Shown here: in pieces, positions 37,498-56,586 of the stretch
How the letters are laid out: each line of letters starts with the position of its first letter
Position numbering within the stretch: the stretch's first letter is position 1
Source of the DNA: Fistulifera solaris
Lineage: Eukaryota
Length of the DNA: 64,000 nt
Assembly: GCA_030295235.1 (NCBI GenBank)
Contig: AP026164.1
Span: 1 to 64,000, forward strand
Direction of reading: 5' to 3'
Translations under genes and position numbers: made by a program
Notes under the pieces: generated by a model
Told to the model about the DNA's origin: nothing
Seen by the model: only the letters and a program-made list of their open reading frames with translations
Databases searched by the model: none

Positions 37498-38658
37498 ATG
37501 AGTAACAATGATCTCCTTCTAAGTGCTGCGCAAAAGAATCAACCTGATCGAATTCGCCAACTAGTCGAGCAACAAGGCGTCCCGGTAAATCATTCGAACG
37601 CTGTCGGGCAATCTGCGTTGCACATTGCTTGTTTGTGGGGGCATGGTACGTGCGAATGGTTTTCCTATATATCCCTTGCCTTATTCGTACATATAACTTC
37701 TGCCAATTTGAATGTCGTCTATTTTCTTACTCGTTATCCTCTCTACTCTGACTACCTCGTATGCAAACACTACGTCGCGATGATCCTACAGTCGAAGCTG
37801 TAACGGCACTTCTTGAGCTAGGTGCACCGGTAAATGCGCAGAATCGGCTAGGAAACTCAACACCGATGCATATGGCGGTTGCCGGGAGAAATCACGAGAC
37901 TATTGGAACGGTTCTCGACTTGCTTTTTGCAATACGGGGCCGATGTGAACATAACAGATGTACAAGGACAGTTGCCCTTTGATTTTTGTCCTCCGCATGC
38001 AGAATGGAAAGATAAAGTAGCACCTGCACCGCCGTTATGGTATAGTGCCCTTAAGAGAGTCGACTTAGAGGCTTTTCGATCATCTTGTGAGGATGATGCG
38101 AATCAGCTCGGTGCACCAGATAAATGGCAGTTTCGAGGATATTCGGTAGCAGATTGCATGTTTCAAATCTTTATTGAAAATGAATACGATGAGTTGTCAG
38201 TTGTTTTCCCCTTTGTGGCATTTTGGCTTAATCAACAATACACGCATACAATCCCCAACGACGAAGAGTCGTTCTTTGCACAATACATGCAGCAGCGCCG
38301 CCCACACCATCCGGAGTTGGTAAAACTACTACAACCATATTTTCCTTCTGATATGTGGCAATGGCTGCATCGCAGTGCCCGCAAAAACGATTTAGCGACT
38401 GTTCAGTATTGCATTGATGTTTTACACGTCAGCCCGAATTTACAAGGACGACAAGGCATGACAGCTCTACAGTTTGCGGCGAGATCGGGACAAATGCAAG
38501 TACTGTATTATTTGCTCGATCTTCCTATCATTGGCGTCAACATTACCGATGATCGCGGCCAGACTCCGCTGGATGCAGCACGTAGTAATCATCGTCAAGA
38601 AGCGGTGGCTGCTATCGAGCAAAAGCTAGGCCTTGTATCTAGTATCGACGAGAAATAG
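37498..38658 (+). CDS. Ankyrin repeat protein; intron 37646-37791; frameshift near 37926
   Basis: GQSALHIACLWGH, STPMHMAV, GMTALQFAARSG and GQTPLDAA. Confidence 0.85.
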
Positions 38659-39357: not shown

Positions 39358-40161
39358 ATGGCCACTACAGCAGAAGACGAAGAAGCGAAACGCCTTATGG
39401 GTGAATGGGGTCTCGACAAAGAGGACATCCAAGTCGACGATGTCCCCGACGACGATGACGACATTCACACCTTCGATGATTACATGGAACAGTATCGTCG
39501 TGAAGATTGTGTTCCGCATGATGATGAGCTCGATCATATTATTCTAGGAACTAACAATTTGGAAGAAGCTCTAAAGCAGTTCTACGAAATGACTGATCTC
39601 AAACCGATCATGGTCGTTTCGTTGAAAGGCGTCGGCACAAAGAGTGCTCGCCTTGCATTCGAGTCTTGTCAGTTCTTGGAGATTATGGGCCCGGATCCAG
39701 CACACATGGGAATGCCTCTAGCCAAGAAACTTGCGGCGCTTCCCGACGGTGAATTGGTGCCCTTTCATTACGCCATTCGCTCGAAAGACAAGATGAAGGC
39801 CGAAATCTGGAAAGAATGTGACTTGACGTGCGACAAAGTCACCATGGTTTCTCAAGATCGAGGATCGGCATGGACTTGGACCATGGCTATCCTAGAAGGA
39901 CATGATCAAGGTGGTCTTGTTCCTTACTTAGTTGACTGGGGTGAGTCGAAACATGCGGCAGCTCGATTGCCGGTCATTGGTTCGTTAGACTCCCTCAAGG
40001 TCACAAGTGGCTCCGATAGTCCTGTTCACACACTCTTGGACGGTATCGGACGTGTGACGGTAGCTACAGGTAAATCTTCCTTGGAATTAACTTTCACCAG
40101 TGCCAAAGGAAAGCATACCTTCAAGACACTTGTTCCGGGAGGAATTGAATTTCCCAAGTAA
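39358..40161 (+). CDS. VOC/glyoxalase-like (Glyoxalase_3-type) protein with acidic N-terminus
   Basis: LDHIILGTNNLEEA, GTKSARL, FLEIMGPDP and GLVPYLVDWG. Confidence 0.75.
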   Translation: MATTAEDEEAKRLMGEWGLDKEDIQVDDVPDDDDDIHTFDDYMEQYRREDCVPHDDELDHIILGTNNLEEALKQFYEMTDLKPIMVVSLKGVGTKSARLAFESCQFLEIMGPDPAHMGMPLAKKLAALPDGELVPFHYAIRSKDKMKAEIWKECDLTCDKVTMVSQDRGSAWTWTMAILEGHDQGGLVPYLVDWGESKHAAARLPVIGSLDSLKVTSGSDSPVHTLLDGIGRVTVATGKSSLELTFTSAKGKHTFKTLVPGGIEFPK

Positions 40162-42725: not shown

Positions 42726-44236
42726 TTACATGAACATGTTGGAGTTGAATGAGTTCGGGGGTTCCAAGTGATCTGGATTAGGTTCGCCCGGTAACTGTTT
42801 GCGACTACTTCCACGTCCTCGGGGATCCCCTTCCGGGGGTCGTTGTCGTCGAGGGTCACCCACTACTGGTCCGAAGGGATCGAAGCGGGGTTGCATCGAC
42901 ATAGCACCATGGCTGCCATTCGCTTGGAACATGGGATGATCGGGACCCATAAGGTTGCCTGGGTAAATACTCTGCATTGGAAATTGGGGACTGGGGTACA
43001 AGTCACCAGCAAAATCACCAGGGTGATGAGGCACTGGCGGACTGAGATAAAACGTCGGCCGTCCATCCGGGCCAACCGCTTCGAAACTGGGCCGCGTCTC
43101 CAGCACTGTTGCAGTGTGAGTCGGAAGAGGCGGCGGCACGGACTGACGTGTGGGTAGAAAAGCGACCGTACTATCAACGTAAGGCTCCTTCTCCAAATTC
43201 TCCATCTTGTACTGCCCCAAGTCAAAGACTCTCCCAAACTGCGACAACAAGTCTGCTATTTGCTTGTAATGCAATATAGGTTCGCTCGGTTTCGTCGCTT
43301 TTGCAAATGAATCTAAATTGAAATGTTGGGATAGTGGAAAGGACAAAGTGGGAGCGTCTTGCGTAGTAGCACTATCACTTTTGCTGTTGGGTTCTTGCGA
43401 CAAGATAACATGCAATGTTGGCTCCTGGCTTGTTTCGGTAGGCTGATTTTCTAAGCGTACCGTCAAAAGAATACTCGATCATTTCGATAACGCAATGTGA
43501 TTTGTTCTTTGTCGGGGACCCACGGCTGCGGGAGAAATGTTGTTAAAGGGCGTACCGGCGCCGCAAATCCAGTCGAAGGCGCGGTCTCTGGAATCCCGGT
43601 ACAAACAAAGCCATGTTGCAACAGAACGGCATGCAACAAAAGCACTATAGCTTCCGATGGTTCTTTGACACGAACACGTTGCTCCGCAAGAGTCGTAATA
43701 GCAGCCTGTGTCATTTCTTTCCCCCATGCCGTTGTTGTCGTTCCGCGTGAGCTATCGATATCATTGCCGTTCTCGTTAACATTTGAATCAGCAATTACGT
43801 CTTCCCAGTCGTCCATATTTGTGTCGTCGTTCGTGTAATCTGCGGAACGCATAAAAGAAGAAGACTTGTTTGAGTCAGATAACAAGAAAACGCGTTTCTC
43901 TTGTTCGTTGAAATCGATGCTGTCGCCGTTTAAATGATTGAACTCGTTCGTCGAGGAAGTTGTTGACACAAATGCTGATGTTTTCGCCTTCTGTTGCTGA
44001 AATTTCTGATGTAACACACGATCTCTAGCACGCTGTCGCAATTCACGATCGATTCCTTGCAGAGCCGCAGCAATCGCTGGATTCTGTTCGTTCTGGTCGC
44101 TTTGATTGCTGAACAAAGGACACTTTAAAATGTAATCTCTAAGCAAATACAAGTCCCTGTCTTCTTCATTCATGATATCGCTGATGTTATAGTTGTTTGT
44201 CATGTTATTCTCTTTAAAAGGAATGGATCTTTTCAT
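42726..44236 (-). CDS. PSMF1: Proteasome inhibitor PI31-like protein (frameshift near 43466)
   Basis: FP-domain-like AIVLLLHAVLLQHGFVCTG. Pro-rich tail GNLMGPDHPMF, PRFDPFGP, GEPNPDHLEPP…NMFM*. Confidence 0.8.
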
Positions 44237-44987
44237 GAGAAGAACGAGATAAATGAATGCATGAGAAAGTTTGCGGATGTGCCTGTACCATCAGTACTGG
44301 AGTCTACGTACAAGATGACCCACCCTCTGAAAAATGTTTTGATGAGAACTGTCATGAATAAGATATCTCATAGGGGTCGGGGTATTCTAAAGAGGGCCAA
44401 GGGGATCAAACAAGTAGTAGCCCATGCTTGCACAATTTGATCTTTAAAATCGTTTCGATAAATGCGTCTTTAATTGATATTTCCAGGCCAGAGTCTCCCG
44501 TCATTAATACACCTAAAACTGCAGGTTAAACGTTACCACGACTGCTTTTAGTCATGAGTCGACAACGTTGCGGAAGTCGCAAATACGATGCATCAAGCCT
44601 CACTATAAGCCTCGCCTATTTCCTAACATTGCTTACTTCCAATGAGCGCAACTATTATTGTTCTTTTACAATCAATTCGTAGATGGGTGTTGGCGAAATT
44701 ATTGCCAACCAGACTGTCCCATCGATCACTGTAGCGCCAAGTGTAGGCTTAACTTCAACAAGACTGCACTTCAGTCACGAGTCATGAATATTATACACCG
44801 AGCAGACACCGAGTAGTATAATAACAGTGCTATCTATGACTAGGTGCCAAGTACAACTTCAGTGCTCGAAAACGCCGGACAAATCTTTCTTTCGTTGCGC
44901 CAGTAATGGTGTTGCGTTATGCAGAAAGTTACAACTTATTTGGTCCCCGTCACGTAAACTCGAAAAATGAAGTTTTTAGAGATGCAA

Positions 44988-46479
44988 CTACTCCGTTAAC
45001 TGGTTTTGAATCCATTTTAGGATCGCTGCTGATGTCATTTGACCTGTATACAAGACCGGTCTTCGTTCTTTTGACAACACCAAATACAACGTCGGTGTTA
45101 CTTCTACTTCAAAGCCGGCTTCTTCCATGGCAGGAGTAGGCTGATCCACAGTAATGTCATACCGTGCTACCTGTATATTGTGATTTAGAGCCGAATCTTC
45201 ACCGTGCTTCACAACACTAATGACTTGTTCCATGGTTGGCGCAAAGTCTTGACAGGCACCACACAACGGCGAATAAAATTCCAGCAACAGCACGGTTGAG
45301 AGAGTCTCTATAACGTCGAAAAATGAGACAGCCGTCAATTCGTAATCACATTCCAAACAGTCAATCGTCGGCAATTCGAAAGCAACATTCTGTTGAATGG
45401 CTTCTAGTCTCATTCTATCCAGTTTTTCCAAATGATGATGCATCCCACATTCTGTTTGATTTAAACCCACAAATCGTCCACTCCGTTCAGCCGCTGTACT
45501 CGCAACCGCTCGTGTTGTCATGGTATCGCCAATGCTTTTGTATCCCCGATCGTGTAGCGGATTGTACGGGACATCGTGTTCCTGCAAATAGCTCCAGACT
45601 TGTTCGTAGGTCCAATCGGCCAACAAATTGACTTTCAGACGCTTGGGTCGGTCGGAAACATCTTCTTTATCAAAGTCCTCCCATTCTACAAATTGTAACT
45701 GACTCCGTTCATCTCCTTGGTCACGACGTCGTCCCGTAAACCAAACATGCGCCTGCAATTCGTCCAAGGCTCGTTGCAAGGGCTCCACTTTCGAATAATA
45801 AGCGTATTTTTCGGGATCGGTGCGATACAAATTATCACCGCCGTAAAATGCATCAAAGGCTTGCCGTGTGGGTGTTGCACTACCAGGCACCTTGGGTGTG
45901 TAAACACGCAAATCCAGATCCGGATAATGTTCTTGTACGGTATCGTAGAACTGATAGGTTTCCGGGAAAAGATGCAAGGTATCAATCGTTACAACGGTGA
46001 TCAGCGATAACACATTCATCTGTGCCATGACATCGAGTAAGACCATTCCGGTAGACCCAAGACTGGTGACTGAGATAACTTTGTGCTGTGGCTGTTGCTC
46101 GTAAATCCAGTAATTCAGTCGCTCTCGTAAGGAAAGAGGCGATAAATAGTCATTGAGTTGTTGCAGCGTTTCAAGAGAAGGCGGAAAAGCATTTAGTAGA
46201 GGAGCTTTTCGTTGAGAAATCCTTGAAAAAGGTGTTGGAATCTGTATCAGTCGAACGGCGAAAAAAGGCAAGAAAAAAGAAAGCCAACAAAATCCCTCTG
46301 GTCAATCGTCGCCGGCGTTGATAAAATATGCACAATCGTTGATAGAGAATGATTACGAGCGAAAGTCGTTGAGATGCTTGATGAATGCTTTGACTGTGAT
46401 GATGATGATGCTGTTGTTGATTGTAATTATTTATTCTTGTCGGTTGCGAATATTGATAGTGCTGTCTCGGATGCTTCAT
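44988..46479 (-). CDS. PAPS reductase (Met16-like) with N-terminal signal-anchor and C-terminal thioredoxin domain (homopolymer frameshift near 46263)
   Basis: SLGSTGMVLLD, DTLHLFPETY, KVEPL, TGRRRDQG, PYNPLHDRGYKSIGD and ERSGRF…TECGMH; thioredoxin LEFYSPLCGAC; N-terminal RRRRLTRGILLAFFFLAFFAV. Confidence 0.85.
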
Positions 46480-47010
46480 TGCATTATTTACTCCGTAGCA
46501 TGAAAGAAGATCGACCACAATTTATAACAAGAAGGCAGGCAATTCTGGGCTTGTAAGGCTTCAAATCGAATTTGATTTCCTCCGTAGTCTAACTTTGAAA
46601 GCGAAACGTTGTATACAGGAGGAAAGATAGAATAGAATGGGGAAATAATAAGGTGCAATAATAGGAATGGAAGTTTTCCTAGATGCATGGCAGTATATTT
46701 TTTGTCGGTGCAGAGGAGACCCGGATGCTTTCAATCCCGACCTTACTAAGTTTGTCACAATATTACCGCCAATCTTACATTGAAATAGGTTTATCATACC
46801 AAGAAAATTTGAAGACCCGGGTGTTTTGACGAATGGAATTGTTTTTTACGAAGTCTCCACAGCAAAAACCTTGTTATCTACCACTAATGAGGCCTTTATT
46901 ATCAATCGCTTACGGTTCAGGAATCAACCTATCGTCATCCTCAGTTGGTGCTATTTTATTGTGGTCGTAAGGCATGATTCTGGTAAGATTTAGTTAGGGT
47001 GTTGCCTACC

Positions 47011-48120
47011 TTACACTCGTTGCTTCGACTTGAATGTTAACATTTCATCGCCTATTTCAGAATAGCCGTGGTCGTACAAAGGATTGTAAGGAATACGGTT
47101 GGTTCTCACGTAGTTCCATATCTGCGCATTCGTCCAGTATGCCAACGGATTGATCTTTAGTCGACCCGCATTGTCTAGTTCGAAACAGCGCAATTCTCCA
47201 TTTCGTGTGCTTTCACGTGTGTCAGCCGTCAGATACACGGGCACATTCTCCAATGCCCGTTCTAAAGGTTCTGTAATAGTCAAATAGTCATACCGCGATC
47301 TATCCTTTCTCCAGATATTTCCGAAGTGTTTGTCGAACGCTTGTTTCTCGGTGAATCCGAAAGGTTGATAGAACTGATAGTTCACATCTTTGTAATAATT
47401 TTGAATCCGTTGAATCAAATGATAGGTTTCCGCAAATTGGTGCAAAGAATCCATGGAAACGACGGGAAGGAGCAATTCGTGCTGGTGTGTTTCCGCTAGC
47501 AGAACCATGCCGTGCACGGTAAATTGATTCCATTGCACAACGTTGTACCTCTGTTGTCTCAGCCATTCAAGGATACCAGCTGTCGCACTATTCATTGCGG
47601 CATCTTCATTCGTATTACCGGGACACAATTGTTCATTCAGTAGATCTAAATCTTGTATCGTGGGCGGCATATTGTGAAGGGATTTGTAGCGTCTCAAGTT
47701 CGAAGAGGAGGGCGCCGATAGGGAAGTCTTGAACTTGGACTGTGTAGAATTACTGTGCAGTAACATGTCCTTCCGATCCCAACGTAGGAATAAGACAGTC
47801 GGAACGATCAAGCATACCATCAAGAATAGTCCACGAGTCAGACAAGAGGGCAGTAGGGGACGAGACTCGCAGGGGTAGCGTATTGGTTTGTGAGGGCGAG
47901 TACCACGTCGTAAGGTAGTTGAAACCAAACCATCCGTAGATGCCGTGCGAACAACACTGCTACGGTTACAAGTACCGTTGATGTTGTTACCGATGATGCT
48001 ATTGTGACTATTGCTTTTTGGGCTAGGATGAGGACTCTGATGCAAGGGTAATAAAGCCGGTTCTCTACGAGAATTCGGTCCCCAAGAGACATTTCGCTTC
48101 ACTGGGCTTGTCACTTGCAT
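47011..48120 (-). CDS. Degenerate PAPS-reductase-like protein with N-terminal signal-anchor
   Basis: TM LTRGLFLMVCLIVPTVLFL; DSLHQFAETY; YDYLTITEPL; KINPLAYWT…IPYNPLYDHGYSEIGD. Ends before the ECG motif. Confidence 0.8.
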   Translation of the reverse strand: MQVTSPVKRNVSWGPNSRREPALLPLHQSPHPSPKSNSHNSIIGNNINGTCNRSSVVRTASTDGLVSTTLRRGTRPHKPIRYPCESRPLLPSCLTRGLFLMVCLIVPTVLFLRWDRKDMLLHSNSTQSKFKTSLSAPSSSNLRRYKSLHNMPPTIQDLDLLNEQLCPGNTNEDAAMNSATAGILEWLRQQRYNVVQWNQFTVHGMVLLAETHQHELLLPVVSMDSLHQFAETYHLIQRIQNYYKDVNYQFYQPFGFTEKQAFDKHFGNIWRKDRSRYDYLTITEPLERALENVPVYLTADTRESTRNGELRCFELDNAGRLKINPLAYWTNAQIWNYVRTNRIPYNPLYDHGYSEIGDEMLTFKSKQRV

Positions 48121-52695: not shown

Positions 52696-55600
52696 TCATT
52701 CCTTTTGCTTAGATTCACCTTTCCTTTTCGACGCACCACTCTTTTGTTTGCCTCTTCCACCGCTGCTGCCATTAAGATCCAAATTCCATTTACCATCCTG
52801 TTTGCGATTGGTTTCAATAGACCGTGCTGCTCCGTACGTATCTTCCCCGCCCGAATGCTGGGGATTCTTACAGTCTCCATTCGCATCCACTAGCTTACCC
52901 CAACGATTTCGTTTCGTGTCTTTCACTCTGAGTTCGACTGGACCATGAGCAAAAACGCACTTGTTCTTCTTGCGCATAGGGCAGCTCGTTCCATAGCTTA
53001 CATCCCAGTGGTTGCACAATCGCGTACGAAATTTGGGGTCTTCGGCACATCGCTCTAAATTCGTGTCGCGCTTTCGTAAACTTGCGTCTACCCGTCGTAT
53101 CCATTCTTCGTCGGAACGACTCCAGCCACGGCAATGCAGTGATCGCGCAGCTGTACTTCCATGCCAAATGATCACATCGCCAACTGTATTTACATCCAAC
53201 GGTAAAGAACTGACGTCTTCACCATTACTGGCGCTGCGTAATATCGTTCCAGCTACATCTGCAGTTCCTTGTGGATCGGATTCCAGAGGAGATTCTGGAA
53301 TCATTTCCGGTACATTTTGCCGAGGTAACACCGTGGCATGACGGTCCTTTGTAGGCGTCCCTTCTCCTCGTTCGTCTACTTCGACTACTTCTGCAAGAGC
53401 TTTGTCTCCTAATCTCTTCTTTTGTCCGTAGTGAGCTATGTTATATTTGACAGATAAAGGATCGTCGACAGTCAGGTATTCACGACAAAAATTGTAGCAG
53501 TGAATCAACAGCCGGGGAAAACGCTGTTCAAAATACTCCAACAATCCATCTGTTTTCGACTTAAGAGTGTTTTTCAAATTGTCGGACATTTCGTCAAAGT
53601 GATGATGTTTGTTGCGCATAAGCCGGAGTAGATCACGCACCGAAGATGGATCATACGTACGAAAGCGCTGAACATTACTTAGAAGCTCAGGCTCCAGTCC
53701 GTTGTCCCAAGAAGTTCCAACTACCTGAGCAGCTCCTTGTTCTACAGCAAGGAGACGTGTCATGGTCTGAGAAGTAACATCGTAGTCCATTTCCAGACGA
53801 TCCGAGAATTCACACAAAAAAGCAAGCCGACGTTCGGCAGACCAGAAGAAAGGATGCTCACATACTTGAGAAGCTGTTGGGCGAAGTAAAGGATTACGCT
53901 GCAGCATGGAAGCCACCAAATCATAAGCATCCAGCGATATGTCTTTGAGGGCGTCAAGTTGAGGCCGATTGTGCATAATGTTTGCTTCCCTTTCGTACCA
54001 TTCTCCAAATGGGTGCGAGCCTGGTTTCAAAGTTGAGTAGAAAATACAGCCCAGCGAGAAAACGTCTACCGATCGACTAGTTCGACCGCTTAGACAGTTG
54101 TCAGCAGGAGATGAGCCAGAAGCAGATTCTGGATTCAGGCTGCCTTCCGAACGGACGCTTCCGTCCGACGGTATCCGCCTTGCCATTACCTCAGGTGCCT
54201 GCCAACCAACACTTCCTGGACCCGCTTCAGCGAAAGACGCCTTCTCCCCGTTCCATACGCCTCTTAACGACGACTCATTCAGTAAACTAGCTCCGTAGCT
54301 ACTTTGGCCAACCAGCTGTTTTCCTAGTCCCATATCCGATATCTTCGCTACATAGAGCCCGCGCTCGAACAGTCTTATAGGGCTTTCATCATCTTTTTTG
54401 TCGTCCTTTCTCTTCGACTTTTGATTCCGCGAATCGGCGAGCAAAATATTCGCTGGTTTCAAGTCGCGATGCACGATTCGTAACCGATGCAGATGTCGCA
54501 CACCATTAGCAATTTGCACGAGCAATGATCGCGTTGCTGCCAAAGATCTAACTTTTGGTTCGCTGCAGAGTGCACCAATGAGATCGTGCAGCGATAAATC
54601 GCACAATTCCAGGGCTAAATAAACGAAATCACCACGTGTTTCTTTCAAAAAGTATCGCACAACATTGGCGTGTCCGTCACTTTCAATCAGCAGTGAGATC
54701 TCTCTATCCGCGCTGGCATGGTAAGCTTTAAGCATTCGCTTGACTGCTACTTGTCGACCGTCCAGCAGGCCTTTGAACACCACTGTTCCGTGTCCACCAT
54801 AACCGAGAATAACATCGTCGTATACTTGGATTACCCCACCTTCTTCGGTAGGCGACGTAGATGATGACACGTCCCCACTTTCCGCCAAATCTTTCAGCCG
54901 CTTCCGTCGTCCCATTTCAAATGATACAACAAAGATCAGCGCTACCGTTGGTGGTAGCCATGAACCCAATATTCTCAGAATCTTGTGCTGTTTTTTCTTT
55001 TCTGTCATAGGTATGTGATAATATGATGGTATGTATCCATAGTCAGGATGAAACAAAGGGACAATCGCAGTATCCTCTGTGTATTCTCCCACCAACATTG
55101 GAGCAAATGGATTCTGTCCCGCATCGTAAAGACAAGCCGGAAACTTGGCATTGCCCGGATGACAACTACCGACGTCGTCTACGTGCACTTCGCCATTACT
55201 GGTTATTTCCGGTCGATCGGGGCCGTCAATGATTTTCTCTTTCGACGCGTCGTGCATCGGTGAATGATACTTGAGAGGCATTGCATACAGTTGTCCTGAC
55301 GGAAGTGCCGCAATGATTGTTTGTTCGTCATCTGTTGAAGGGGCCCGGAGCTGTCGCTGAATCTCTCGAAGTAGATACTCCGGTGAGTTGTTTGGAATGG
55401 CAGGATCCGGAATGATCGTCACGGGCAAACTAGAGCCCGACGCCACATCTACGGCAAATGCAACCGGTGACTCAAAAAAGTCTTCTGCCATCCAAAGAAC
55501 ATTATTTTCCTGTCGAAACGCCAATACTCCACTCGGAGTTGCAAATAGGGAACCTTTGTTTCCATCTCTCGCAAGTGGCAATCTCGAATTCGAGTACGCA

Positions 55601-56586
55601 CCTGGTTCCGGCGGTTCCCACGGTTGTCCACTTCCTAACACCATGTCATTTATGGATAAGATTCTTCCTTGCGTAAACTGGACATCCATAATACCCCGTC
55701 TTGGTTCTTGAATTGATATGGTTTGATCCACACGTCCCAACCATACAACATATGTTTCGTCATGAGACGGATTGCTGCACGTCTCACCCGAAATGTGCTG
55801 CAGAATTTTCCCGGTTCGACTATCAATGGAAACCGCCATGGTGTGTCGACTTCCGGTATAAATACGGCCCCTATTATCAACGAAAGGTACCCGTGATACA
55901 AGCTCACTCATGGTAGTCGTGACAGTCACTTCATCTGTTGCTTGTCGATCAAGCATGCCATCGCGGAGAGGAGCTGTCAAATGAACTTTTCCATCAATAG
56001 AGGGTACCGCGGACGTTTTCCAAACAAATTCGTCCTCTTTTGCTGTTGATTTGGTCGTTGTATAAATAAGGGGCGCCAATAGGGAAGCCTCTGCTGCCGC
56101 AGTTTGTCGATCCTGAAATTCGTGGACATTCTCTTGCGAGGATGTCCGCCAAACAGTCTTTCCTGTCGATCGTGAAATGCCCGCCATCGTGCCATCAACA
56201 GCCACCACGACTAGTATGTCACTGCAGTTCGCAGTATCGTTATTTTCTTCCTCATCCTCGGTTCCATCTGTGGTTGAGTAGCGCGAAGAGTCATCGTAGT
56301 ATTGTTGCAAAGATGTATCTTTTTCGTTTCTTTCAAGGACTTTGGTCAATTGCCACATCGGTCTATCATTTAACTGTAAAGTGGTTAAATCCGCACCTAC
56401 TTTCCGGTTGTTGTGAGCATTATTTGAGGAAGGAGGATGCAAAGACGTAGGCTTCGCAGTTTTTGCCGAGGCTAAAGTTGTGTGTTGCCGAAGAACCGCA
56501 TCAAGAAAGAATAATGCTTGCACGAGAACAAACTTCTTTCTGTGTTGCTTTATATAAAAAGCGTGCTTGTCTCTATTTGCGTTCAT
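52696..56586 (-). CDS. IRE1: IRE1 kinase/endoribonuclease with an extra C-terminal CCCH zinc finger
   Basis: Luminal domain VDGTMAGISRSTGKTVW; TM ILGSWLPPTVALIFVVSF; kinase LGYGGHGTVVF, VAVKRML, HRDLKPANIL, KISDMGLGK, GWQAPE; KEN domain SVRDLLRLMRNKHHH. Confidence 0.95.
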   Translation of the reverse strand: MNANRDKHAFYIKQHRKKFVLVQALFFLDAVLRQHTTLASAKTAKPTSLHPPSSNNAHNNRKVGADLTTLQLNDRPMWQLTKVLERNEKDTSLQQYYDDSSRYSTTDGTEDEEENNDTANCSDILVVVAVDGTMAGISRSTGKTVWRTSSQENVHEFQDRQTAAAEASLLAPLIYTTTKSTAKEDEFVWKTSAVPSIDGKVHLTAPLRDGMLDRQATDEVTVTTTMSELVSRVPFVDNRGRIYTGSRHTMAVSIDSRTGKILQHISGETCSNPSHDETYVVWLGRVDQTISIQEPRRGIMDVQFTQGRILSINDMVLGSGQPWEPPEPGAYSNSRLPLARDGNKGSLFATPSGVLAFRQENNVLWMAEDFFESPVAFAVDVASGSSLPVTIIPDPAIPNNSPEYLLREIQRQLRAPSTDDEQTIIAALPSGQLYAMPLKYHSPMHDASKEKIIDGPDRPEITSNGEVHVDDVGSCHPGNAKFPACLYDAGQNPFAPMLVGEYTEDTAIVPLFHPDYGYIPSYYHIPMTEKKKQHKILRILGSWLPPTVALIFVVSFEMGRRKRLKDLAESGDVSSSTSPTEEGGVIQVYDDVILGYGGHGTVVFKGLLDGRQVAVKRMLKAYHASADREISLLIESDGHANVVRYFLKETRGDFVYLALELCDLSLHDLIGALCSEPKVRSLAATRSLLVQIANGVRHLHRLRIVHRDLKPANILLADSRNQKSKRKDDKKDDESPIRLFERGLYVAKISDMGLGKQLVGQSSYGASLLNESSLRGVWNGEKASFAEAGPGSVGWQAPEVMARRIPSDGSVRSEGSLNPESASGSSPADNCLSGRTSRSVDVFSLGCIFYSTLKPGSHPFGEWYEREANIMHNRPQLDALKDISLDAYDLVASMLQRNPLLRPTASQVCEHPFFWSAERRLAFLCEFSDRLEMDYDVTSQTMTRLLAVEQGAAQVVGTSWDNGLEPELLSNVQRFRTYDPSSVRDLLRLMRNKHHHFDEMSDNLKNTLKSKTDGLLEYFEQRFPRLLIHCYNFCREYLTVDDPLSVKYNIAHYGQKKRLGDKALAEVVEVDERGEGTPTKDRHATVLPRQNVPEMIPESPLESDPQGTADVAGTILRSASNGEDVSSLPLDVNTVGDVIIWHGSTAARSLHCRGWSRSDEEWIRRVDASLRKRDTNLERCAEDPKFRTRLCNHWDVSYGTSCPMRKKNKCVFAHGPVELRVKDTKRNRWGKLVDANGDCKNPQHSGGEDTYGAARSIETNRKQDGKWNLDLNGSSGGRGKQKSGASKRKGESKQKE

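Follow-up and report, generated by a model that had tools for sequence, protein, structure and literature searches.

A diatom sulfonucleotide reductase-thioredoxin fusion with a conserved basic tail and hydrophobic helix, a candidate membrane-anchored enzyme

Gene structure and reading frame

Gene A lies on the minus strand at positions 44988-46479 of the window, a stretch of 64,000 nucleotides from Fistulifera solaris, and every element described in the original prediction was found in place. The gene is carried by two frames offset by one base. The upstream frame opens with its first ATG (46477..46479, minus strand), taken as the start codon from the way in which the frame reads and from the proteins P0131 and P0132, which also begin MKHPRQ; from there it runs through a basic cluster, QRRRRLTR, to GILLAFFF. 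The downstream frame (46271-44988, minus strand) comprises 427 codons, begins LPFFAVRLIQIP and ends with the stop codon at 44988..44990 (minus strand). The product, of about 496 residues, is most likely intact and continuous across both frames. Directly upstream, on the same strand (47011..48120), lies gene B, a PAPS_reduct-like paralogue with a hydrophobic helix of its own and with neither a catalytic tail nor a thioredoxin domain, which, as far as its sequence tells, is catalytically dead and anchored.

The original prediction had restored the frame by correcting one T in a run of Ts. A single surplus base does separate the frames, but it belongs to the T6 homopolymer at 46273..46278 (minus strand; A6 on the plus strand) and not to the T-run at 46261-46266, which was rejected: the letter missing from independent contigs is at 46273, and the proline of the corrected junction (...FFF / LPFF...), as found in the orthologues P0001, P0131 and P0132, is preserved only by the former run. 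These three orthologues read across the junction in one frame. Contigs of run X1 omit one letter at 46273 at 22.6 of 22.6 depth, a figure that includes depth otherwise identical to the window and is counted as 1 contig in the table, and contigs of run X3 do so at 8.6 of 8.6 depth. Run X1 is labelled 'RNA?', which is a guess, and it was treated as DNA because its contigs cross intergenic DNA. Since independent contigs lack the base and three close orthologues are uninterrupted, the break most likely arose in the assembly, as an error in the homopolymer. An intron in place of the frameshift was considered and rejected: the GT...AG pairs in the frame overlap (46171-46301) are 15, 36 and 47 nucleotides long, all very short and none congruent to 1 modulo 3, and the contigs show no joint.

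A genuine frameshift in this copy of the genome, leaving a young pseudogene or only a 352-residue product that starts at an internal Met, is highly improbable: the window sequence as given does carry T6 and two frames, and the public models of the gene A locus (P0130, 352 aa) and of the Fistulifera solaris protein in the same 90% cluster (P0129, 356 aa) begin at an internal Met, but the whole X1 depth at the site lacks the base, no further stop or shift occurs across about 1.5 kb, the contig differences within 44988-46271, among the 40 of 139 listed, are at third codon positions in 26 of 35 places, and an internal-Met start would delete conserved N-terminal helices and the SLGSTG motif of the reductase. 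The first in-frame Met past the hydrophobic helix sits behind SLGSTG, so that the fold would be cut short by initiation further downstream. The tail and helix recur, within a single uninterrupted frame, in orthologues at 93%, 87% and 70% identity, which argues against their presence in gene A by chance. The public models of the locus and of its closest named relative appear to be truncated, the candidate anchor being hidden by the internal-Met start. Among metagenome loci, only relatives of ≤42% identity were found (L001-L013), and the contig of the 93% orthologue was not found.

Reductase and thioredoxin domains

By its domains and motifs, gene A belongs to a family, found across diatoms, of sulfonucleotide (PAPS/APS) reductases that have no Fe-S cluster and end in a thioredoxin domain. 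The PAPS_reduct domain (PF01507; 45507..46076, minus strand) is matched at residues 66-255 of the 427-codon frame with an E-value of 2.4e-44 and 151.9 bits, against a cut-off of 22.5, and it contains, on the same strand, the motifs SLGSTG (46047-46064), IDTLH (45972-45986), YAYYSK (45789-45806), TGRRRDQG (45714-45737) and GDTMTT (45513-45530). The catalytic tail NQTECGMH, with Cys275, is located at 45438..45461 (minus strand) by alignment to yeast Met16 (2oq2), the ECGMH of gene A being aligned with the catalytic ECGIH of the yeast enzyme. The E, C, G and H of this motif are invariant across 54 relatives, and the NQT that immediately precedes it is the sole N-x-S/T sequon of the ORF.

The 427-codon ORF has five cysteines in total, C275 of ECGMH, C305 and C308 of CLEC in the interdomain linker, and C337 and C340 of CGAC. 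As all five are accounted for in this way, the Fe-S cysteine pairs, CCxxRK and GCxPCT, are absent, and YAYYSK and GDTMTT fit the signatures Y/FxxxxK and GDxxxT/S by which the Fe-S-less class is defined (PMC2275785, legend of Fig. 4). The earlier description of a Met16-like reductase devoid of an Fe-S motif and with an intact ECG-H is thus borne out by the PF01507 match, the alignment to 2oq2 and the cysteine count. The AlphaFold2 model of P0001, the 93% identical orthologue, has a pLDDT of 88.9 and is matched by Foldseek to 2oq2 (E 1.8e-20) and 4bwv (E 2.5e-18). As to the substrate, section 9 of PMC2275785 states that no sequence rule tells APS from PAPS use in Fe-S-less enzymes, and the authors of the papers on diatom fusions, in their passages on such enzymes, regard them as likely APS rather than PAPS reducers (PMC2275785; PMC11350084; PMC3901274).

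The reductase is followed, as predicted, by a thioredoxin domain (PF00085; 45006..45338, minus strand), matched at residues 312-422 of the same frame (E 1.1e-11; 45 bits against a cut-off of 23.5), whose active site CGAC is at 45252-45263 (minus strand). The linker between the two domains harbors an extra CxxC, CLEC (45348..45359, minus strand), which recurs at this position in 66 of the 80 fused relatives among the best 120 matches. The closest solved sequences to the thioredoxin domain are PDI-family a-domains (3idv, E 1.6e-12), and Foldseek returns PDI, ERdj5 and ERp46. The C-domain of plant APR is also described as PDI-like, and PDI-likeness is no proof of ER residence; it was therefore set aside as a luminal sign. 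Cysteine depletion was set aside as well, since relatives with an ASAAF motif share it. The reductase-thioredoxin fusion itself is already known, as 'APR-B fused to thioredoxin' has been in print for diatoms since 2008 (PMC2275785, section 9; also mentioned in PMC11350084 and PMC3901274).

Basic tail, hydrophobic helix and candidate compartments

The N-terminal tail, as delimited by alignment of N-termini, comprises codons 1-61 (46297..46479, minus strand); it is rich in Q and H, then leads into a juxtamembrane motif, and is predicted to be cytosolic. The motif, ..QRLS..I..QR..(F/L)Y(Q/H)R+R/K, is common to gene A, P0001, P0003, P0004-P0008, P0012 and P0035. It is kept ahead of the helix between clades that are only about 45% identical, which would not be expected of a discarded signal peptide. 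The hydrophobic helix, a signal-anchor candidate of about 19 residues (46239..46296, minus strand), was delineated from the sequence, the alignment and the hydropathy and model of an orthologue, and it spans the two frames, from GILLAFFF in the upstream one to LPFFAVRLIQI in the downstream one. It begins at residue 62 in the window and at residue 43 in P0001, with no Met nearer to it, and its uncharged core is 14 residues long with K/R on both sides in gene A's clade and several others. In P0001, the Kyte-Doolittle 19-residue mean is 1.98 (about 2.0 for the gene A segment, which has an Arg inside), the net charge is +7 over the 15 residues before the helix and +3 after it, and AlphaFold2 models the tail motif and the hydrophobic stretch as one 37-residue helix (residues 23-59, pLDDT 83-91). 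The following stalk or linker, identified from the sequence and the alignment (46188..46238, minus strand), is basic, rich in Ser, Thr and Pro and free of acidic residues, and may represent either a stretch akin to a transit peptide or a stem in the lumen; the composition of the P0001 linker (S+T 0.18, D+E 0.06, K+R 0.12) is compatible with each.

How widely these features occur was assessed in the best 120 matches, which yielded 80 fused proteins, 73 of them with an N-terminal extension of at least 25 residues. By admittedly crude hydropathy and charge rules, a hydrophobic 19-mer (Kyte-Doolittle mean ≥ 1.5) is found in 59 of the 73; it starts at residue 20 or later in 48 of these 59 (median 36), and its N-terminal flank is the more positive one in 46, whereas the two flanks are equal in 5 and the N-terminal one is the less positive in 8. 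The mean reaches 2.5-3.2 in many relatives, and the 'complete' transcriptome ORFs P0016, P0018, P0042 and P0060 contain the segment. The basic cluster and hydrophobic helix of the original prediction are thus present, and the anchor-like helix is kept both in the orthologues at 93%, 87% and 70% identity and in most N-extended relatives. The conserved tail and helix were not found in the literature searched, and among openly accessible papers none was found that describes a membrane anchor or an ER/Golgi site for a diatom APS/PAPS reductase.

Under the positive-inside rule, a helix that lies well within the protein and is preceded by a conserved tail of strongly basic character is predicted to leave the N-terminus in and the C-terminus out. 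This part of the type II reading proposed at the outset stands, while residence in the lumen has become one of two live readings. Our preferred proposal, held with somewhat less than even confidence, is a type II signal anchor that leaves the enzyme facing the lumen of the ER, the chloroplast ER or the Golgi. Built on the gene structure, the domains and motifs and the conservation of tail and helix, it would assign topology, compartment, substrate and electron donor as follows. The tail and the helix would constitute an uncleaved signal anchor, the tail staying in the cytosol and the reductase and thioredoxin domains facing the endomembrane lumen. There, Cys275 on its flexible ECGMH tail would attack the sulfate of imported PAPS (or APS) to form S-sulfocysteine; the fused thioredoxin, with its CGAC and perhaps with the help of the CLEC pair, would free sulfite, and would then be re-reduced by a luminal thiol donor.

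A small-x-small-aromatic cleavage motif was not found in gene A's clade by a crude regular expression applied to P0001 and P0003 and by eye in the window. Homologues of a plant carrier linked to PAPS transport are predicted, for P. tricornutum, at the plasma membrane/ER or at the chloroplast-ER membrane (as given in PMC9546453). The supplement of PMC6683858 lists for T. pseudonana a distinct isoform whose presequence is of the classical plastid type, and also an ECGLH-type isoform with an internal RRR and hydrophobic segment; given the former, the family of gene A need not supply the plastid. Several points weigh against a luminal anchor. The stretch past the helix resembles a diatom transit peptide in being net positive, Ser/Thr/Pro-rich and about 6% acidic, the NQT sequon next to the catalytic Cys would be open to glycosylation within the ER, and the oxidising conditions of the lumen are poorly suited to a reductase that runs on thiols. 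A subclade in the same part of the tree has an ASAAF-type plastid motif (P0037, P0043, P0136). Diatom reductases of this kind have also been called plastid-targeted (in PMC2275785) or 'probably cytosolic' (in PMC3901274).

In the main competing explanation, the helix provides ER entry as one half of a bipartite signal for the plastid or periplastid. The linker would pass the protein onward from the chloroplast ER, cleaved or not, and the protein would serve as an assimilatory APS/PAPS reductase in the stroma, in the periplastidial compartment or at an envelope membrane. In diatoms, the ER-entry signal doubles as the opening half of the signal for plastid/periplastid import. Cleavage is conceivable because the 14-residue uncharged core has the length of a signal-peptide h-region, and both in gene A's clade and in P0004-P0008 the linker is basic and Ser/Thr/Pro-rich, with hardly any acidic residues. 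Many other family members, in contrast, have acidic linkers, with a D+E fraction of up to 0.27. Plastid presequences have been assigned to sulfate-assimilation enzymes in algae with secondary plastids (PMC2275785, section 5), and Thalassiosirales relatives bear an ASAFAP-like ...IFASAAF... in a clade placed near gene A with weak support (81), but neither in the window nor in P0001 or P0003 is a plausible cleavage site followed by F, W, Y or L. Furthermore, the helix begins 43-62 residues in, with no internal Met closer, and is thus not at the extreme N-terminus, the tail ahead of it is conserved in sequence, and T. pseudonana has its separate classical plastid-type isoform. On balance, we consider this explanation less likely than the luminal anchor, though a serious one.

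An anchored enzyme whose catalytic domains face the cytosol (N-terminus out), or a cytosolic one whose helix is not inserted in a membrane, is very unlikely. The second T. pseudonana isoform is called 'probably' cytosolic (in PMC3901274), PAPS/APS and thiol reductants are present in the cytosol, and the helix of gene A is only moderately hydrophobic (19-mer mean about 2.0, with an internal Arg). Against this, the tail of about 60 residues, with a net charge of +7 beside the helix, would have to cross the membrane in an N-out orientation, and the segment is both more hydrophobic in many relatives and kept in 59 of the 73 N-extended proteins among the best 120 matches.

Eukaryotic sulfate reduction is regarded as a soluble process of the plastid or the cytosol. 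If the luminal reading is correct, sulfur metabolism in diatoms would gain a further compartment through an anchored reductase that brings a thioredoxin of its own, and part of the reduction of sulfur may occur in the endomembrane system rather than in the plastid or the cytosol. Luminal sulfite could then be the entry of cytosol-activated sulfur into the plastid complex or could feed sulfonate or sulfolipid synthesis, or else the reaction could throttle PAPS for sulfation, although control of PAPS for polysaccharide sulfation by gene A, as first suggested, is pure inference. The enzyme would be a candidate site of use for cytosol-made PAPS, given that no plastid APS kinase is predicted, as well as a candidate source of sulfite for the abundant diatom sulfonates, and the 'probably cytosolic' second isoform of T. 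pseudonana would have to be reinterpreted. More broadly, and more doubtfully than the location itself, diatoms might possess a family of type II anchored luminal reductase-thioredoxin enzymes beside the plastid APS reductase, which would turn cytosolic PAPS into endomembrane sulfite, with the tail as a sorting or regulatory signal and the dead paralogue as a partner subunit.

Comparison with known systems

The T. pseudonana protein 24887 (Patron, Durnford & Kopriva 2008) has several features in common with gene A: an Fe-S-less PAPS_reduct domain with ECGxH, a thioredoxin CxxC domain at the C-terminus, origin in a diatom, and an N-terminal extension predicted to enter the ER. As far as a comparison by description goes, the signal peptide of 24887 is short, lies at residue 1 and is followed by FAP, and its thioredoxin motif is WCQFC, whereas in gene A the helix is internal and preceded by a conserved basic tail of about 60 residues, an aromatic cleavage motif is missing, the linker has the extra CxxC, and the thioredoxin motif is CGAC.

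Yeast Met16 PAPS reductase (2oq2) is the best solved match to gene A in sequence (E 7e-39) and the best fold match to the P0001 model (E 1.8e-20, TM-score on target 0.83). It has the same catalytic tail and is likewise without an Fe-S cluster, but it is soluble and cytosolic and has neither a fused thioredoxin nor an N-terminal tail and helix. Physcomitrella APR-B (4bwv) is also Fe-S-less and close to gene A in sequence (E 1.4e-33) and fold (E 2.5e-18); it lacks a thioredoxin domain and an anchor, and the literature describes the moss protein as targeted to the plastid. It shows that a reductase can be without the cluster and yet need not be specific for PAPS (PMC2275785, section 9).

Plant APR follows the same two-domain logic, with a reductase followed by a thiol-disulfide domain of its own (thioredoxin/glutaredoxin-like). 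It differs in being a soluble stromal enzyme and in holding a [4Fe-4S] cluster through CC...CxxC pairs that are missing from gene A. The reductase part of the E. coli CysH-thioredoxin covalent complex (2o8v) matches gene A with an E-value of 1.1e-29, and the complex is the structural model for the resolution by thioredoxin of S-sulfocysteine on an ECGLH tail. In E. coli, CysH and thioredoxin are two separate soluble proteins, whereas in gene A the two parts are fused and predicted to be anchored. Finally, the nearest solved kin of the gene A thioredoxin domain are the a-domains of PDI-family proteins (PDIA4, PDIA3, PDIA6, ERdj5, ERp46), all of which are ER-luminal; they carry CGHC where gene A has CGAC, and in gene A the domain is a single one, fused to a reductase.

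Reading frame and integrity of the locus

The gene for the reductase-thioredoxin fusion (gene A, minus strand, 44988-46479) is split between two frames. The upstream one opens at the ATG at 46479 and contributes 69 useful codons; it is Q/H-rich at its beginning, later reads QRLSLVIILYQRLCIFYQRRRRLTR and then GILLAFFF, and contains, as the original prediction had it, a basic cluster followed by a hydrophobic helix, which continues into the second frame. This second frame, one base off the first, is 427 codons long, extends from 46271 to the stop at 44988 and begins LPFFAVRLIQIP. The two overlap at 46171-46301, and joining them requires the loss of one base. An intron does not account for the frame change, since the candidate GT...AG pairs span just 15, 36 and 47 bases; it is also contradicted by aligned contigs, in which no joint is seen at the overlap.

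These contigs, from two public sequencing runs (X1, and X3, a wetland-metagenome relative about 92% alike), were aligned to 44900-46700. One letter is absent at 46273 in both, at 22.6/22.6 depth in X1 (one contig counted in the table) and 8.6/8.6 depth in X3. This position is the first base of an A6 run, 46273-46278 (T6 on the coding strand). A surplus T had thus been postulated correctly, but it lies in a run seven bases upstream of the one chosen, 46261-46266. The corrected junction reads FFF followed by LPFF, with the proline retained as in orthologues. Two full-length models, P0131 (493 aa, NCBI) and P0132 (501 aa, JGI; belonging to the cluster of P0002), are associated with the 90%-identity cluster of the best match; both start with MKHPRQ and cross the helix in a single frame. 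Gene A is probably intact, the T6 run being most likely a homopolymer error, and a true pseudogene, in which the frameshift would be real, is very improbable.

Two sequence variants of the locus are present in X1 over 44900-46700, one identical to the window and the other 8-10% different. Third codon positions account for 26 of the 35 listed differences within 44988-46271 (40 of 139 rows covered), a bias that indicates purifying selection. Two near-identical public models, placed on different contigs and one of them named Fistulifera solaris, likewise share the protein cluster, and together these observations fit two diverged genome copies, either homeologues or haplotypes.

The public model of the locus, P0130 (352 aa, 44988-46046, minus strand), is in the same 90%-identity cluster as P0131. 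The tail, the helix and the opening helices of the fold are all absent from it, and the F. solaris protein GAX17380.1 of that cluster (356 aa) shows the same truncation. Both start at an internal Met behind an SLGSTG motif, and the anchor is therefore missing from public annotation.

Catalytic domains and neighbouring genes

The 427-codon frame matches PAPS_reduct (PF01507) over residues 66-255 (E 2.4e-44) and thioredoxin (PF00085) over residues 312-422 (E 1.1e-11). Yeast Met16 (2oq2, E 7e-39) is its top match among solved structures, followed by Candida PAPS reductase (7rge), moss APR-B (4bwv, E 1.4e-33) and E. coli CysH (2o8v), and its ECGMH lines up with the catalytic ECGIH of a solved relative. 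Five cysteines are present in this frame, C275 in ECGMH, C305 and C308 in the linker motif CLEC, and C337 and C340 in CGAC. The Y/FxxxxK and GDxxxT/S signatures, which separate PAPR/APR-B from Fe-S APR (Patron et al., PMC2275785, Fig. 4 legend), are both found. The Met16-like, Fe-S-less reductase fused to a thioredoxin domain with CGAC, as first proposed, is fully corroborated by these matches.

The motifs are observed, and the activity is predicted from family membership. By analogy, Cys275 on its flexible tail would attack APS or PAPS to form S-sulfocysteine, which the fused thioredoxin would resolve with release of sulfite, and the resulting disulfide would then have to be re-reduced. The second CxxC, CLEC (45348-45359, minus strand), lies in the linker between the two domains; a CxxC recurs at this position in 66 of the 80 fusions among the best 120 matches listed, and it may be a redox relay or a metal site. 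The sole N-x-S/T sequon of the ORF, NQT (within 45438-45461, minus strand), directly precedes the catalytic Cys, where the family consensus is GLNxTECG.

About 530 bases upstream of gene A lies a paralogue, gene B (47011-48120, minus strand; PAPS_reduct, E 1.8e-26), in which a long tail likewise precedes a hydrophobic helix. Gene B terminates soon after the GDEM motif, without the ECGxH tail or a thioredoxin domain. Of 66 family columns at least 90% conserved, 33 are retained in gene B, 13 are altered and 20 are missing; the alterations affect the SxG loop, the invariant Lys and GRR, which is replaced by ADT, among others. The same end point is seen in orthologues that are 82%, 64% and 75% identical (the third over 64% of the query), and gene B has a narrow distribution, with eight matches in all, four of them close and one being the window's own protein. 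It is thus a conserved paralogue and probably an inactive one (a pseudoenzyme).

At higher coordinates on the minus strand, a 1296-codon ORF (52696-56586) that combines a protein kinase domain with a Ribonuc_2-5A (KEN) domain is, judging by these domains, an IRE1-like ER stress sensor; its C-terminal extension includes a Cys/His-rich stretch that by eye resembles a CCCH zinc finger, with no Pfam match. Neighbouring ORFs match PI31_Prot_N (43463-44236, minus strand, E 1.9e-07), Glyoxalase_3 (39358-40161, plus strand, E 2.3e-17) and ankyrin repeats (38158-38658, plus strand), and no link to sulfur metabolism is evident from these domain matches.

A conserved tail before the helix

Searching 5.8 billion proteins yielded 4609 matches among 8000 scored candidates. 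The closest orthologues are 93%, 87% and 70% identical, and the remaining listed matches reach at most 48%. Among the best 120 of the 4609, those named are diatoms (Cylindrotheca, Epithemia, Amphora, Thalassiosira and MMETSP transcriptomes), and the nearest ESM-Atlas cluster is also from Bacillariophyta.

The N-termini of these 120 were surveyed with simple in-house rules. Eighty are reductase-thioredoxin fusions, 73 of which have at least 25 residues preceding the conserved domain, and a hydrophobic window (mean Kyte-Doolittle of at least 1.5 over 19 residues) was found in 59 of the 73. Together with P0131 and P0132, which read through it in one frame, these relatives answer in the affirmative the question of whether orthologues keep the anchor-like segment. 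The hydrophobic stretch begins no earlier than residue 20 in 48 of the 59 (median 36), and its N-flank is more positive than its C-flank in 46, equal in five and less positive in eight. Five of the 14 without such a window (P0002, P0010, P0025, P0034, P0083) have a sub-threshold peak at residues 0-2. The segment is included in four transcriptome ORFs labelled 'complete' (P0016, P0018, P0042, P0060).

In the N-terminal alignment, a motif preceding the helix, approximately (Q)RLS..I..QR..L(Y/F)HR.K followed by 14 uncharged residues and R, is conserved in the gene A clade, P0004-P0008, P0012 and P0035, groups whose overall identity is only about 45%. They fall into three branches of a 25-row group, with one row outside, at weak support (SH-aLRT 81, IQ-TREE quick). 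An AlphaFold2 model of P0001, the 93%-identical orthologue, built with a 54-sequence alignment (mean pLDDT 88.9), places motif and hydrophobic stretch in a single helix, residues 23-59 (pLDDT 83-91). Conservation before the hydrophobic core is expected of a retained cytosolic tail, not of the discarded n-region of a signal peptide, and the conserved tail and anchor-like helix of the family are real. The tails of yeast Golgi glycosyltransferases carry a signal, (F/L)(L/I/V)xx(R/K), that binds Vps74/GOLPH3. The L-L-Y-H-R form of the motif resembles this signal and the I-F-Y-Q-R of gene A fits it loosely, which we take to be a lead rather than evidence.

Location of the enzyme and relation to known reductases

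The favoured reading, with somewhat less than an even chance of being correct, is that the helix is a type II signal anchor that is not cleaved, the tail remaining cytosolic while the enzyme faces the lumen of the ER, chloroplast ER or Golgi. Such a luminal PAPS consumer would fit the P. tricornutum homologues of a plant PAPS/adenylate carrier, whose predicted sites are the plasma membrane/ER or the chloroplast-ER membrane, and the report there that no plastid APS kinase is known (PMC9546453). Two points against it are that a reductant would be needed in an oxidising compartment and that the Asn of the NQT sequon, beside the active-site tail, could be glycosylated in the lumen. The luminal interpretation offered initially is thus partly supported; the location it proposes is plausible rather than proven, since plastid import in diatoms has the same beginning.

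The main rival, in which the helix serves as the ER-entry half of a signal for plastid or periplastid targeting, is rather unlikely, and draws on the basic, Ser/Thr/Pro-rich, nearly acid-free linker after the helix, the shortness of the uncharged core (just 14 residues) and an ASAAF motif in a related subclade. A crude search for small-x-small-aromatic residues near the end of the hydrophobic segment matched 14 of the 59 proteins. Among the matches, P0037, P0043, P0045 and Cyclotella atomus P0136 carry IFASAAF at the end of the segment, by its sequence a good ASAFAP-like plastid motif; the Thalassiosirales subclade with it is listed as these four, P0134 and P0139. The same search found no motif of this type in the gene A clade. 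The IFASAAF proteins also have the conserved basic stretch upstream of the segment, and upstream of an internal Met, so the boundary between the two kinds of N-terminus is not sharp, and one of them, plastid-type or anchor-type, may have arisen from the other. That the enzyme faces the cytosol or is unanchored is very unlikely. The boldest reading, in which the endomembrane system of diatoms holds a whole family of sulfonucleotide reductases that are anchored and luminal, is somewhat less probable than the signal anchor of gene A.

Fe-S-less APR-B homologues, some with a C-terminal thioredoxin, have been described in secondary-plastid algae; they were argued to reduce probably APS, and 'an additional stramenopile isoform' is mentioned at the clade base (Patron, Durnford and Kopriva, 2008; PMC2275785). 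A 2024 review repeats 'APR-B fused to thioredoxin' (PMC11350084). Gene A is a member of this known fusion class; its tail and anchor-like helix are undescribed in the full-text literature searched, where no paper was found that gives such an enzyme a membrane anchor or places it in the ER or Golgi. Bromke (2013; PMC3901274) lists two T. pseudonana reductases, each carrying a thioredoxin CxxC, and assigns one to the plastid and the other 'probably' to the cytosol. Among the proteins listed in the PMC6683858 supplement, T. pseudonana 24887 opens at residue 1 with a short signal peptide, followed by FAP, the reductase and a WCQFC thioredoxin, and an ECGLH-type protein has its hydrophobic segment about 55 residues in, behind RRR. 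Judged by these sequences, T. pseudonana has at least two isoforms, a plastid-type enzyme and the gene A family coexisting in one diatom, and the gene A family therefore need not be the plastid enzyme.
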